A stretch of DNA of 41,056 nucleotides, taken from the UHGV virus genome UHGV-1383708. One strand, given 5' to 3'. Position numbers and translations under genes: made by a program. Numbering within the stretch: position 1 is the stretch's first letter; every line of letters starts with the position of its first letter. The stretch is from a virus. Below, piece by piece: positions 1 through 41,056 of the stretch. Under the pieces are notes generated by a model, which was not told where the DNA came from, made no database searches, and saw only the letters and a list, made by a program, of their open reading frames with translations.

Positions 1-6
1 AGATAA

Positions 7-33
7 AAAACCCTCTGTAGTAACAGAGGGTTT
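7..33 (-). terminator. Displaced original guaA intrinsic terminator (host side of attL)
   Basis: Hairpin CCCTCTG-N6-CAGAGGG followed by U-tract on minus strand; near-duplicate at 40933-40958. Confidence 0.5.
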
Positions 34-58
34 TGTTCATTCATAGTGCAGGGATCAA

Positions 59-75
59 AATCATTCCCACTCAAT
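59..75. repeat. attL core (left copy of 17-bp direct repeat AATCATTCCCACTCAAT)
   Basis: Exact 17-bp match to 41002-41018; flanking bases differ. Confidence 0.8.
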
Positions 76-185
76 TATTTACGGACACCATAACCAATTG
101 AGTGATAACATTTTTCCAAAGCTCAATTTTCCTCGTACCGTTTTATATACCGTCACCGGAAATCAGTACCATGAAAAATGCCATG

Positions 186-668
186 CTATCTGGTCAGGGT
201 GTCGTACTGTTTTTCACAGACTCTTCCGGCTTCGGCTGCCCGGTCAGCATACTCTGCCAGTTGTCTGTTTCTCTCGAGAGATTTACTGAGCACGTCGGCA
301 AGCAAAACTCCGGTGTCTGCGGCTGACGTCCCAGCGCCGACAATGGCGTTATAGTGCCTGAGCTGCTCACGGATGGCAACGAGCTGTTGCTGCAACCGGC
401 CAGCGCGAGCGGCAGCATCAAGAGCATCATTGCGCGCCTGGTCGATCCTCTGCTGCGCTTCACGTTCATTGATCGATTTCTCCTGTTCGTAGTGCTGACG
501 AACTTTGTCTTCTTCGGCTTTGCGGTCTTCTTCCGCCTGAGCATACCCGGCATCGTACTGGCGACTGCCGTGTGCATTCCAGGCGACAACTCCTGATATG
601 ACCAGAACAGCAAGCATCGCCATGATAACCAACTGTTTCCAGTATGCTTTTGCGAATGCCCAGATCAT
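186..668 (-). CDS. Rz-like inner-membrane spanin
   Basis: 160 aa; N-terminal [18 protein letters not shown] then charged coiled-coil; follows endolysin. Confidence 0.6.
194..430 (-). CDS. Rz1-like outer-membrane lipoprotein spanin, embedded in Rz in another frame
   Basis: [13 protein letters not shown] lipobox then Pro/Ser-rich sequence; fully inside the Rz gene. Confidence 0.5.
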   Translation of the reverse strand: MMLLMLPLALAGCSNSSLPSVSSSGTITPLSALGRQPQTPEFCLPTCSVNLSRETDNWQSMLTGQPKPEESVKNSTTP

Positions 669-1294
669 ACCGCCAGCACCTTACTGGCAGTGATGTATCG
701 CGCGCGCCGGTCGTCGATGCCGTTCCTGCCACCATTGATAATCAGAGTTACACGTACAATATCTCCGGTATACTTCATGCAGCCTTTGCTGGAGAAGAAC
801 CAGGCCGCGCTACGAGCCGCGTATTCGTCCTGTGCCAGCAGTTCAGGATTCTCCAGCAGGTCAACTTTCAGACCGTTTCCGCAGTCACGATAGTTATTCA
901 AACCGGTAATCTGGATAAGCCCGCGCCCACGGTAATTCCAGCCATCGCCGGGAGCATTGTTACCCATGCGTTTGCTGTATACCAGATTTGCGATCGCGCG
1001 CTGGCGCTCAAGTGGCAATGGTGGTTCACCAACGCGGCGCCCCAGTGCATTAGCCTGTCCCTGGGTGAGGCGTCCAGTCCGGACAAAGCTCACCAGTCCG
1101 GTAACGCTGTAGTTGAAATTCTCCTGCAACCTGGTGAACCCCCCAGACTCATGCCCAACTTGAGCAATAAACATTGCCTGATCTTCTGCCTTGCTGATAC
1201 CAAACTCTTTCATCGCAGAAGTTATATGCGAGAACCAGCGAGCGGCCAGCGCCTCGCTAATACCAGCAGCTCGCTGGAATTGTTTAATCTCCAT
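665..1294 (-). CDS. Endolysin, glycoside hydrolase family 19-like
   Basis: 209 aa from MEIKQF; motifs QVGHESGGF and [22 protein letters not shown]. Confidence 0.75.
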
Positions 1295-1592
1295 GTTTAG
1301 ACCTCGATATTTTGAAAATCTGAACAACGTTACCGCGTGTTTTAATAACCGCGGCAAGCATGACAGCGTTGATAATGACCTCAGATAAATCCACAGCCAT
1401 TGGCGTGCGTAACCAGATTGCATAGACGACACGAACAGGAATACTGGCCGCAGCAACAATAAGGAAATAAGCAAGCCACCCTCCCCATCTTCGATGTTGA
1501 GAGCCGTTACGCCGGAATGTGACAACGCGAATTGCTATGCCAGTACAAATAACTGCATTGGTGATAAGCAAAAAAAACTCATGCGTTACCAT
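1284..1592 (-). CDS. Putative second lysis membrane protein (holin/antiholin-like)
   Basis: 102 aa; hydrophobic helices; overlaps both neighbours. Confidence 0.45.
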
Positions 1593-1983
1593 CGTCTTTT
1601 CTCCCCGGAATTAACTCGCGTGGATTATCGGAACGGTGATAGAGCCATATACCAATACGCACAGCAACAATTGCTGACACGAATGCGCCAGCTGAGAAAA
1701 CAATCCCTTTTTCAAAAGAGTCCTGCGTGATGGTAGGGATCAGGCTGGCTATGCCGATAAGAATTGATGCTGCTGGTTTATAAAAAAGAAGGCCGCAGAG
1801 AAAGCTAAGCATCGACAAGAGTACACGACGACGAATAGGATACTCTACCGCAGAGGTAACAAAAATTACCGCCCCAGCCAAAGCCCCCAAAGCAACCTCA
1901 GGAGGAACTCCTGCTATCACCGCCGCCAGAGAACTCATGCTAAGCCACTGATTTAAAGTTTCACTGGTTAGTTGAGCTGACAT
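1579..1983 (-). CDS. Putative holin (multi-TM membrane protein)
   Basis: About 134 aa from MSAQLTSE; several hydrophobic helices; first gene of lysis cassette. Confidence 0.5.
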   Translation of the reverse strand: MSAQLTSETLNQWLSMSSLAAVIAGVPPEVALGALAGAVIFVTSAVEYPIRRRVLLSMLSFLCGLLFYKPAASILIGIASLIPTITQDSFEKGIVFSAGAFVSAIVAVRIGIWLYHRSDNPRELIPGRKDDGNA

Positions 1984-2205
1984 GTTTTCCACCGTTTATA
2001 TGCATAACTACCTCCTGAATAGTAAAGGCATTACGCATGATAAACCATTTATGGTTTTTTGTTACCCATGCATTGTCAATCCCCTTCCTTTCATGTCGAT
2101 AATAAGGCTTGCCTTTTACATAACTCTGAAGAGATTGCAGTACAGAAATGATTTAAAATATAGAGGCTTAGTTGAATTCCGCGCCATTTGATGGCGCGGT
2201 AGCAG

Positions 2206-39366: not shown

Positions 39367-39557
39367 ACAGGGCATCACCAGCAGATTTAAGGAAATGCCT
39401 TGAAACTGCAAACATGCTTGCACACAGCGGGATCAGGTTTGTTCCAATTCCCGCTGTCACTGATGCTGAATTTGCAACACTGTCAGCAATATTCACAGAT
39501 AAAATTGAATCACTGGCAGCAGAAGCCGAGATGGAAGAAAATCAGCAGAATAATTAA
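39363..39557 (+). CDS. Hypothetical small protein (64 aa)
   Basis: ATG overlaps stop of upstream methyltransferase gene (ATGA); MNRASPADLRKCLETANMLAHSGIRFVPIP. Confidence 0.45.
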   Translation: MNRASPADLRKCLETANMLAHSGIRFVPIPAVTDAEFATLSAIFTDKIESLAAEAEMEENQQNN

Positions 39558-39560
39558 ACG

Positions 39561-40811
39561 TTATTCCCTCGCCATCCACTTCTCAAACTTCGACGGGGAG
39601 AACGGAATCAGATCCGTATGCTCCCCGTTAATCCAGGAATCTATCATATCGGCCCACTGCTGCAACATGTAGGCGCGCTGTCTGGCGTATTCCGCTTTGT
39701 TATATACGGCGCGCACACCTTTCTGCTCATGTGCCAGAGCCTTTTCAATCCAGTCTGAAGGATAACCAGCCTCATGCAACAACGTACTGGCTGTACGGCG
39801 CATATCGTGTACGGTGAAATCCTGAATATGCTCACCATCTTCATTTATTATTTTCACCGTTCTGTCGATCAGAGAGTTCAGCGCGGCATTAGATAATGGC
39901 TTCCGGAAATTGTAACGACCAGGAACCAGATATTCACTTCCACCAGCGCACATCTGCAACCCGACCAATATATCCTGAGCCTGTTTAGGCAGGTAAATAA
40001 CATGCGCCCGGCTTCCCTTCATGCGGTCTGAAGGAATTGTCCATGTCCATTTTTTAAAATCTATTTCATCCCACGTTGCATTGGTGAATTCGCCCTTACG
40101 AACCATAGTGATAAGCACCAGTTTTAAAGCCATTTTCATAGTGCCCATAGCACCAATGGCATCCAACGTGCGGAAGAACAGGCCAATTTCTTCTGGTGTC
40201 AGTGTTCGCTCTCGTGGTTTAAATATGGCGATAGACGAAGGCTTAATGTCAGCCGCAGGATTAAACAAACCATGACCACGGTCATTGGCGTGACGGTATA
40301 CGCTGCTGATGATCTCCCTGGCCTGCACTGCTGTTGCCCGGCCACCGCGTTCGACAATCCGGTCACACAAATCACGAACCATCGATGTGGTAATTTCAGC
40401 CATCATTTTGTTGCCAAGAACCGGAAGTATGTCACGGTCGATCACTGCCTGCTTCATTGCGCGGGTACTTTCAGCCAGGATGACGTGTTTCATATAACTG
40501 TCGGTATGTACCGCAAACGTTTCGGCACCACGAATCTTTTTGATACCGTCACGTTTAGCCGCAGCCGGTGACTGGCCTGCTTTAAGCAGCTTCTTTGCAG
40601 CAATCAGTTCTTCCCGCGCTTCTGCCAGGCTGATACCGTCACGCCCATACTGCCCGATTACCAGTGTTTCGCGGCGACCGTTGATACGGTAGTCATAACG
40701 AAATGAGACCGTGCCTGACGTAAGCACAGCTACATACAGCCCGTCACGATCGGAGACCTTGTACAGTTTGTCCTGCGGCTTGAGGTTTTTTAATTTTGTA
40801 TCGGTAAGCAC
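39561..40811 (-). CDS. int: Tyrosine integrase, P4-type with N-terminal arm-binding domain; GTG start
   Basis: 416 aa; N-terminus LTDTKLKNLKPQDKLYKVSDRDGLYVAVLTSGTVSFRYDY typical of P4-like integrases; C-terminal catalytic region with HDMRRT; adjacent to attR. Confidence 0.9.
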   Translation of the reverse strand: MLTDTKLKNLKPQDKLYKVSDRDGLYVAVLTSGTVSFRYDYRINGRRETLVIGQYGRDGISLAEAREELIAAKKLLKAGQSPAAAKRDGIKKIRGAETFAVHTDSYMKHVILAESTRAMKQAVIDRDILPVLGNKMMAEITTSMVRDLCDRIVERGGRATAVQAREIISSVYRHANDRGHGLFNPAADIKPSSIAIFKPRERTLTPEEIGLFFRTLDAIGAMGTMKMALKLVLITMVRKGEFTNATWDEIDFKKWTWTIPSDRMKGSRAHVIYLPKQAQDILVGLQMCAGGSEYLVPGRYNFRKPLSNAALNSLIDRTVKIINEDGEHIQDFTVHDMRRTASTLLHEAGYPSDWIEKALAHEQKGVRAVYNKAEYARQRAYMLQQWADMIDSWINGEHTDLIPFSPSKFEKWMARE

Positions 40812-40853
40812 AATTCACCCGTATAGAAACCATTTTCATGACGGTATGAGAGT

Positions 40854-40868
40854 ATACCTTTAAGGTAA
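40854..40868. promoter_or_regulatory. Operator-like palindrome ATACC-TTTAA-GGTAA upstream of int
   Basis: One mismatch to TTACC-N5-GGTAA; 43 nt upstream of int start. Confidence 0.45.
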
Positions 40869-40932
40869 TACCGTCACCTGTACCGCCGAAAAATATGGTG
40901 TAGAGTGAATAGAAATGAATACATAAAAACAA

Positions 40933-40958
40933 AAACCCTCTGCAAAAACAGAGGGTTG
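40933..40958 (-). terminator. Phage-supplied replacement terminator for guaA
   Basis: CCCTCTG-caaaaa-CAGAGGG hairpin with minus-strand U-tract, 45 nt downstream of guaA stop. Confidence 0.5.
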
Positions 40959-41001
40959 AGTTGGCATCTGAATAGGAATGATTTGCTATGAGTTAGCTGT
41001 T

Positions 41002-41018
41002 AATCATTCCCACTCAAT
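41002..41018. repeat. attR core (right copy of 17-bp direct repeat), overlaps last codons and stop of guaA
   Basis: Exact match to 59-75; contains codons I-E-W-E-stop of the minus-strand reading frame. Confidence 0.8.
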
Positions 41019-41056
41019 GGTAGCTGGCGGCTTGCCGCTGATGTCATACACCACGC
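41004..41056 (-). CDS. guaA: GMP synthase, 3' end (partial, continues beyond window)
   Basis: Minus-strand translation of window end gives VVYDISGKPPATIEWE*, matching the GuaA C-terminus as I recall it. Confidence 0.75.
   Translation of the reverse strand, partial: VVYDISGKPPATIEWE

Follow-up and report, generated by a model that had tools for sequence, protein, structure and literature searches.

A full-length phiV10-group prophage at the 3' end of Escherichia coli guaA, with a guaA-type terminator-like hairpin at each junction

How is guaA of Escherichia coli left intact, together with a terminator for its transcript, when a phage of some 41 kb inserts at its 3' end? This question is raised by virus genome UHGV-1383708, a stretch of 41,056 nt that was analyzed as a whole (positions 1–41,056; hereafter the window). 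With high confidence, we identify the window as a full-length temperate podophage of the phiV10/epsilon15/TL-2011b group (Uetakevirus lineage), integrated at the guaA 3' end of E. coli. The element measures 40,960 bp from core to core, or 40,943 bp with the core counted once, and has a [G + C] content of 48.0%. The phage family, its att core, the guaA target and the attP-side terminator are already published or annotated, and this is a common type of prophage.

The ends of the element are marked by AATCATTCCCACTCAAT, an exact 17-bp direct repeat that is the longest match between the two window ends; no third copy was found elsewhere in the window on either strand. The literature gives its reverse complement, attgagtgggaatgatt, as the attP core of phiV10 and epsilon15 and also as the attP/attB core of vB_EcoP_ZX5, for which attB, attL and attR at the guaA 3' end have been proven by polymerase chain reaction and Sanger sequencing (PMC9782041). 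TL-2011b has been reported as a guaA insertion as well (PMC3293862). The two ends of the window carry the following features:

1–58, minus strand: yfgI-side host flank of attB, originally the 3' untranslated region of guaA, including its terminator hairpin (7–34)
59–75: left att core copy (lysis-gene-side junction), an exact repeat equal to the published core
76–185: attP arm on the Rz side, with a core inverted repeat (88–115 against 57–84) and the arm-type motif ATACCGTCACC at 147–157
40812–41001, minus strand: attP arm on the int side, with the arm-type motifs ATACCGTCACC (40868–40878) and TGACGGTAT (40839–40847)
40969–40983: core-type inverted repeat within the int-side attP arm
41002–41018: right att core copy (integrase-side junction), holding guaA codons I-E-W-E, the stop codon and 2 nt
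41019–41056, minus strand: last 38 nt of the host guaA coding sequence (glutamine-hydrolyzing GMP synthase) before the core

Three independent lines place the junctions exactly at the 17-bp repeat. Matches to free-phage and prophage records start at window base 59 and stop at base 41018. The phiV10 virion genome runs without interruption over the core (26720–26736), where the 17 bp occur once; window base 41018 corresponds to phiV10 position 26720 and window base 59 to 26736, and the attP predicted by joining the two arms of the window aligns to phiV10 26600–26930. The attB reconstructed from the host flanks (1–75 joined to 41019–41056; 113 nt) is found uninterrupted and 100% identical in E. 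coli chromosomes, being unbroken in 4571 of 5426 complete genomes. In one genome with an empty site, yfgI runs rightward, followed by the hairpin and by guaA running leftward, so that the two genes are convergent. Repeats at the ends of the element, an unbroken attB in empty genomes and an unbroken attP in the free phage together correspond to integration according to Campbell.

The same comparison settles the fate of the gene. The minus strand of 41004–41056 reads GCGTGGTGTATGACATCAGCGGCAAGCCGCCAGCTACCATTGAGTGGGAATGA, ending in the guaA codons ATT GAG TGG GAA TGA (IEWE and stop), with the stop codon as the complement of 41004–41006; in the empty-site genome, the RefSeq guaA annotation ends at exactly the predicted base. 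The 17-bp core comprises the last four guaA codons, the stop codon and 2 nt, and the enzyme is therefore unchanged by the recombination. A first-pass annotation of this DNA had proposed a prophage at the guaA 3' end, with a 17-bp core that overlaps the last codons and regenerates the gene intact. Both proposals were borne out by the phiV10 attP continuity and by the empty-site comparison, which left the junctions at the core.

Each junction also carries a hairpin. On the host side, arms at 7–18 and 23–34 form a stem of 12 bp that is 100% complementary (folding energy −17.8 kcal/mol, z −5.4); on the minus strand the hairpin is followed by UUUUUUAUCU, and the T-run after the stem on this guaA strand is TTTTTTATCT. 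T-runs flank the host hairpin on both strands, which makes it plausibly bidirectional. A terminator scan of the left end missed this hairpin because its T-tail runs beyond the end of the window; it was detected by direct folding and by a repeat search. The phage hairpin (40934–40957, minus strand), which the terminator scan did detect, has 10 pairs and the tail TTTGTTTTTA, with the T-tail extending to about 40925 (folding energy −16.5 kcal/mol, z −4.3). Its T-run is found solely in the sense of guaA and the lysis genes, the plus strand being without a T-tract. Both structures consist of a GC-rich hairpin directly followed by a T-run on the transcribed strand, as in intrinsic terminators, and the hairpins would be expected to terminate transcription in vivo. 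The equivalents of the phage hairpin are annotated as rho-independent terminators in phiV10 (26781–26813) and epsilon15 (26795–26824). In the epsilon15 record, this terminator is flanked by annotated Int and IHF sites, and integrase and IHF binding sites are also annotated in the arm equivalent to 76–185.

The two hairpins resemble each other closely. The 27-mer AACCCTCTGTTACTACAGAGGGTTTTT, which spans stem, loop and T-run, occurs at 6–32 without mismatches and at 40931–40957 with 3 mismatches (24/27), a two-hairpin match for which 0 occurrences are expected (100 shuffles); between the host-type 27-mer and the phiV10 hairpin, 25 of the 27 bases are shared. Among 28 IMG/VR contigs with 20 distinct phiV10-type arms, the hairpin begins exactly 44 nt past the core in 20/20 arms, and the AACCCTC stem is kept in all 20 while the spacer varies. 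We consider the phage and host hairpins homologous on the basis of these sequence comparisons. The earlier view that the phage brings its own guaA-type terminator, with the original host terminator displaced to the left junction, agrees with these data: the phage hairpin lies 44 nt past the core, the host hairpin remains on the yfgI side, and the positions first given (7–33 and 40933–40958, besides the 17-bp core) were correct to within one base.

The identification of the element as a phage of this lineage rests on its gene content and order. Gene calling gave 55 protein genes at a coding density of 91%, and each of the 55 either has the full length of its phiV10 or TL-2011b counterpart or matches a phage protein family. 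The modules are collinear with those of phiV10, with 81–100% identity for packaging, head, tail and lysis proteins, and the core attgagtgggaatgatt stands beside a P4-type tyrosine integrase at the guaA 3' end. Every module is present and full length, from lysogeny, recombination and replication through packaging, head, tail and tailspike to lysis, in line with the initial description of a complete prophage without obvious truncations. No transposase or insertion sequence element, frameshifted core gene, or large gap beyond regulatory regions was found in the prophage. The regions without a phiV10 or TL-2011b counterpart (the tailspike, a replication initiator, Ead/Ea22, DUF551, DUF7739 and the DUF2335 membrane protein) all match phage protein families. 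Formal genus placement by whole-genome identity is borderline: the product of Megablast coverage and identity, a rough measure that underestimates, is about 55–61% for phiV10 and phiv142-3 and about 76% for TL-2011b, at a genus criterion of about 70% whole-genome nucleotide identity to a classified member, and the TL-2011b record is without genus-level classification.

Three observations limit the reading of the window as a member of this group with a host-like terminator in its attP. No phiV10 oac, TL-2011b O-acetyltransferase or epsilon15-type conversion gene was found in the window; O-antigen conversion genes near the tailspike are typical of phiV10 and epsilon15 and not strictly defining. 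No exact whole-prophage match was found in the collections, where the best matches reach 84–89% coverage at about 98% identity, and the complete E. coli genomes hold no identical prophage (best match 89% coverage, 98% identity); the element is therefore a new mosaic. Finally, the spacer from core to hairpin measures 44 nt in the phage and 26 nt in the host and cannot be aligned between them, which confines the homology to the hairpin and the T-tract. No evidence contradicts the identification as a prophage.

Is the prophage functional? We regard it as plausibly inducible, since its parts (int, xis, repressor and att sites) are intact and relatives are inducible; lysogens of ZX5 spontaneously release about 10^7 plaque-forming units per mL (PMC9782041). 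It is unlikely, though conceivable, that the element is instead a cryptic prophage in which point defects in regulatory sites or missense changes block excision or particle production. Decayed copies of the family are common at guaA, as is shown by the lower frequency of the lysis-side junction: of the 5426 complete E. coli genomes, 364 have it, against 569 (about 10%) with the junction on the integrase side. The present copy is itself a mosaic that lacks an identical relative. Against such decay stand full-length proteins nearly or fully identical to those of the plaque-forming phiV10, namely Int (99.3%), the repressor (100%), the AlpA-type excisionase (100%), terminase (99.6–100%), and portal and capsid (99–100%), together with intact att cores and arms and the lack of insertion sequences, frameshifts and gaps described above.

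The likeness of the hairpins could be examined in a second integrase lineage that uses the same 17-bp core. This integrase (396 aa, 53% identity) was found in IMG/VR contigs and in a Citrobacter genome:

9604–11115 of locus L147, and loci L179, L235 and L020 (Citrobacter): second integrase lineage

The attP arm of this lineage carries the hairpin AAGCCCGCGTAACTGCGGGCTTTTTT. Exactly this hairpin follows guaA in Raoultella terrigena (locus L003, about 3850–3947), where the neighboring convergent gene is of the AraC type and no integrase is present. The stems fall into two types, CCCTCTG (Escherichia-type) in the phiV10/epsilon15 lineage and GCCCGCG (Raoultella-type) in the second lineage. As the arms of both lineages are host-like, guaA-targeting phages appear in general to carry a guaA-type terminator. 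Tatumella and Rosenbergiella have a near-identical flank downstream of guaA (TCGCGTCTGGCAACAGCC...), and the locus fetched contained no integrase; the flank may be either native or the scar of a prophage. Among the GTDB matches listed (L003–L082), the 17-mer core was found at the guaA end in Pseudomonas, Streptococcus, alphaproteobacteria, cyanobacteria and archaeal metagenome-assembled genomes; these are mostly distant taxa, and no Salmonella locus was among the matches listed. The core occurs so widely because it encodes the conserved GuaA C-terminus IEWE and stop, and this conservation probably explains why many unrelated mobile elements choose the site.

Convergence or chance, rather than shared ancestry, might also account for the likeness of the phage and host hairpins. 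On this view a T-tract behind any short, GC-rich stem-loop would suffice, and the phage hairpin would serve only to end the lysis operon and shield int, an obvious internal role for which it is annotated accordingly. It would fit such an origin that the spacers differ in length and sequence, that the loops differ, and that the phage hairpin, unlike that of the host, has no T-tract on the plus strand. We nevertheless judge convergence very unlikely. The hairpins agree at 24 of 27 bases (25 of 27 for phiV10) and lie on one and the same side of the core with a common orientation; 100 shuffles gave 0 matches; the stem is invariant in 20 distinct arms despite diverged spacers; the second lineage corresponds exactly to R. 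terrigena; and yet other guaA terminators are present in further genera. Least probable of all, to the point of being negligible, is a true crossover outside an incidental 17-bp repeat: the window shows no more than 58 + 38 nt of host flank, but its two ends are identical over precisely the length of the repeat, independent phage records have their breakpoints at 59 and 41018, and every base of the empty site is recovered. The core is also established by experiment, and a junction outside the repeat was tested with an outcome against it. A satellite or phage-inducible island was rejected because the packaging, head and tail module is complete.

The best account of the element is as follows. 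The phage is integrated at E. coli guaA by its P4-type tyrosine integrase, via the 17-bp segment of identity between attP and attB. A hairpin of the intrinsic-terminator type stands in attB and in attP alike, on one side of the core and in the guaA sense, and integration therefore swaps the two. In the lysogen, the phage hairpin would stop guaA transcripts 44 nt past the core, some 120 nt short of int, and the lysis operon (minus strand, from 1983 down to 186) and the convergent yfgI would both end at the host hairpin (7–34). In the circular phage, the phage hairpin lies between the lysis genes and int. The phage hairpin may thus insulate int from read-through out of guaBA.

The position of the hairpin at 44 nt in every phiV10-type arm examined, its homology to the host hairpin and the like pattern in the second integrase lineage, with the terminator of another host clade, mark the terminator swap as a conserved design feature. 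More tentatively, and we would not expect it to hold although it deserves mention, the attP-side terminator could derive from the host and be kept in step with the guaA terminator of the host clade. This would imply that attP has repeatedly captured the guaA 3' flank, or received it by gene conversion, and selection could then keep the ends of guaA mRNA normal and the strongly transcribed guaBA out of int. In a bolder version, partial read-through would couple int expression to the purine-regulated transcription of guaBA. For the prophage itself, the exact boundaries (59–41018) are now set for this mosaic variant, and there is little significance beyond correct annotation.

The genes between the Rz-side attP arm and the virion module are arranged as follows:

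186–1983, minus strand: lysis cassette, full length by tblastn, 81–97% to phiV10 p27–p30a and TL-2011b gp50–53
186–668, minus strand: Rz, with an embedded Rz1 (194–469)
665–1294, minus strand: endolysin
1284–1592, minus strand: holin
1579–1983, minus strand: lysis membrane protein
2206–2520, minus strand: 104-aa predicted membrane protein 3' of the tailspike, at the position of phiV10 oac (phrog_1443, E 4e-55)
2531–4831, minus strand: tailspike, 766 aa (phrog_18162 over the whole length, E 1.6e-288)
5028–6291, plus strand: anti-repressor module 1, homologues of phiV10 p23 and p24
5028–5285, plus strand: small open reading frame of module 1
5368–5444: isrK RNA of module 1 (Rfam, 74.7 bits, above gathering)
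5463–5550: C4 antisense RNA of module 1 (Rfam, 78.6 bits, above gathering)
5554–6291, plus strand: Bro-N domain protein of module 1 (Pfam Bro-N)
6398–7469, plus strand: accessory genes (morons), comprising a 113-aa protein (phrog_10654), a DUF2335 membrane protein (6666–7214) and a 53-aa membrane protein (7308–7469)
7543–8721, minus strand: anti-repressor module 2 (P22 immI-like), with an Arc-like repressor (8554–8721) and Ant (7543–8481)
8483–8550, plus strand: sar antisense RNA between arc and ant (Rfam, 44.8 bits, barely above the gathering threshold of 43)
8932–9927, plus strand: two genes of no assigned role (113 aa and 187 aa), 98–100% to TL-2011b gp40 and gp39

Holin, endolysin and Rz/Rz1 are full length, at 81–95% identity to phiV10. 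In the tailspike, only residues 1–166, the conserved particle-binding domain, are similar (65–67% identity) to the tailspikes of phiV10 and TL-2011b, and the receptor-binding part (residues ~170–766) differs from both. No close DNA relative of the C-terminal part was found in the phage collection, where matches were confined to the downstream 104-aa open reading frame. The latter gave no Pfam or PADLOC hit; it is present at about 90–93% DNA identity in many E. coli phage records and also occurs outside the phiV10 group (Tritos, 2G7b, PhiR11_1).

The two anti-repressor modules of the prophage are separate units. The first has isrK and C4 directly upstream of the Bro-N protein, an arrangement like that of P1 c4-ant, and in the second Ant carries the Pfam domain P22_AR_N (E 6e-45). 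The accessory genes at 6398–7469 stand in place of the YafO-type toxin gene of TL-2011b, and a PADLOC scan of ten accessory proteins gave no defence-system hits.

The late genes for virion and packaging, and the region between them, comprise:

9939–24856, minus strand: virion module, full length, 97–100% to phiV10 and/or TL-2011b
9939–12953, minus strand: virion protein, 1004 aa
12953–15670, minus strand: SLT-domain protein, 905 aa (Pfam)
15670–16215 and 16215–16679, minus strand: internal virion proteins
16679–19150 and 19150–19755, minus strand: tail proteins, with three small head proteins between them and the capsid gene
20964–21950, minus strand: major capsid protein
21965–22660, minus strand: protease, with a 98-aa protein between it and the portal gene
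22956–24635, minus strand: portal
24650–24856, minus strand: small protein
25284–25360, plus strand: tRNA-Arg (anticodon UCU), by ARAGORN and Rfam (73.3 bits)
25564–25935, plus strand: Sf6 gp66/N4 gp49 family protein (Pfam PF13876, E 2e-35), 99% to phiV10 p03
26026–28172, minus strand: terminase, with the large (26026–27501) and small (27498–28172) subunits, 99.6% and 100% to phiV10, full length

Terminase, portal, protease, capsid, small head, tail and the two internal virion proteins are full length at 97–100% identity to phiV10. The same tRNA-Arg is present on the minus strand of phiV10 (2853–2929) and TL-2011b (14420–14496), where RefSeq instead annotates a 'hypothetical protein' on the opposite strand (PhiV10p04 and F365_gp24); in the window it lies upstream of the Sf6-gp66-like gene. 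Between the first late gene and the tRNA lies a GC-rich non-coding segment of about 430 nt (24857–25283), inside a gene-free stretch of 707 nt. Nothing beyond the tRNA was found there in an Rfam e-value scan, and folding gave a z of about −2 on either strand; in the epsilon15 equivalent, RNase III, IHF and repressor sites are annotated.

The early and lysogeny genes complete the element:

28213–32601, minus strand: early-right accessory region, mosaic and variable, with a regulator (28213–28551), DUF551, a 171-aa protein, Ead/Ea22, DUF7739, a 192-aa protein, an Eae-like protein and DUF1064
32719–34913, minus strand: replication and Cro, 97–100% and full length to phiV10 p41–p44
32719–33504, minus strand: lambda-P-like protein
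33501–34316, minus strand: replication initiator of the DnaT/helix-turn-helix type (Pfam DnaT and HTH_36)
34332–34532, minus strand: p42
34683–34913, minus strand: Cro-like protein
35068–35652, plus strand: helix-turn-helix prophage repressor (Pfam HTH_3), 100% to phiV10 p40 over 194 aa
35806–39557, plus strand: early-left operon, including two small open reading frames, a small membrane protein, PerC and DUF1382
36257–37078, plus strand: RecE-like exonuclease
37075–38016, plus strand: RecT
38066–38314, plus strand: AlpA-type excisionase
38704–39366, plus strand: DNA methyltransferase
39561–40811, minus strand: P4-type tyrosine integrase, 416 aa, 99.3% over 416 aa to phiV10 Int

The integrase contains the Pfam domains Arm-DNA-bind_3, Phage_int_M and Phage_integrase, which are the arm-binding, central and catalytic domains. 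The AlpA-type protein is 100% identical to that of phiV10, and the epsilon15 record names the AlpA homologue excisionase. As in TL-2011b and epsilon15, RecE and RecT are separate genes; here they overlap by a few bases. The exception is phiV10, for which a single RecET fusion of 586 aa is annotated. Its halves correspond to different reading frames of the window, which points to a frameshift, or else a sequencing error, in one record or the other.

Of the known systems, TL-2011b (NC_019445; a guaA prophage of enterohaemorrhagic E. coli O103:H25) is the best overall match, with identities of 97.5% over 84% of the first 25 kb and 95.7% over 70% of the rest. In common with the window, it has the 905-aa SLT protein, the 1004-aa protein and Arc/Ant (Arc 100%, Ant 93%; the four together 93–100%). 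Its tailspike and replication initiator are different, its AlpA gene is truncated, and it has an O-acetyltransferase and a YafO-type toxin gene. The RefSeq record continues past the att core with 3.5 kb of E. coli chromosome (41251–44784; yfgI, yfgH and yfgG), which is 97.9% identical to the empty-site locus L244. As the record includes host DNA, the true phage is about 41.3 kb, not 44.8 kb.

The window shares with phiV10 (NC_007804, Uetakevirus phiV10) the att core, the attP-side terminator, the lysis cassette, the tRNA-Arg and the gene order from terminase to internal virion proteins, at 97–100% protein identity. The three large distal virion genes p18–p20 of phiV10 are replaced here by two genes in the TL-2011b arrangement. 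In addition, phiV10 has another receptor-binding domain on its tailspike and the oac O-acetyltransferase gene that the window lacks, whereas the window has an extra P22-like arc-sar-ant module, other early-right accessory genes and an unfused RecE/RecT. The phages vB_EcoP_ZX5 and epsilon15 have the same 17-bp attP core and the same guaA 3'-end integration. Epsilon15 also has the same hairpin 44 nt after the core, but this phage of Salmonella carries genes for O-antigen conversion, lacks a tRNA and has a divergent repressor.

Elements other than phages use the site as well. GIsul2 inserts at GAGTGGGA with an integrase plus AlpA (PMC9376610). This target falls inside the same 17-bp core; GIsul2 and the streptococcal integrative and conjugative or mobilizable elements also occupy the guaA 3' end, but are genomic islands or conjugative elements and not phages. 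In the Campbell model, phages that insert in the 3' ends of genes carry a replacement 3' end, as is known for tRNA-targeting P4-type integrases and for phage 21/e14 at icd. In those phages the target gene is preserved by the duplicate in attP; here, what is supplied comprises the last codons and a terminator, the segment of identity is short (17 bp), and homology resumes at the terminator hairpin only.

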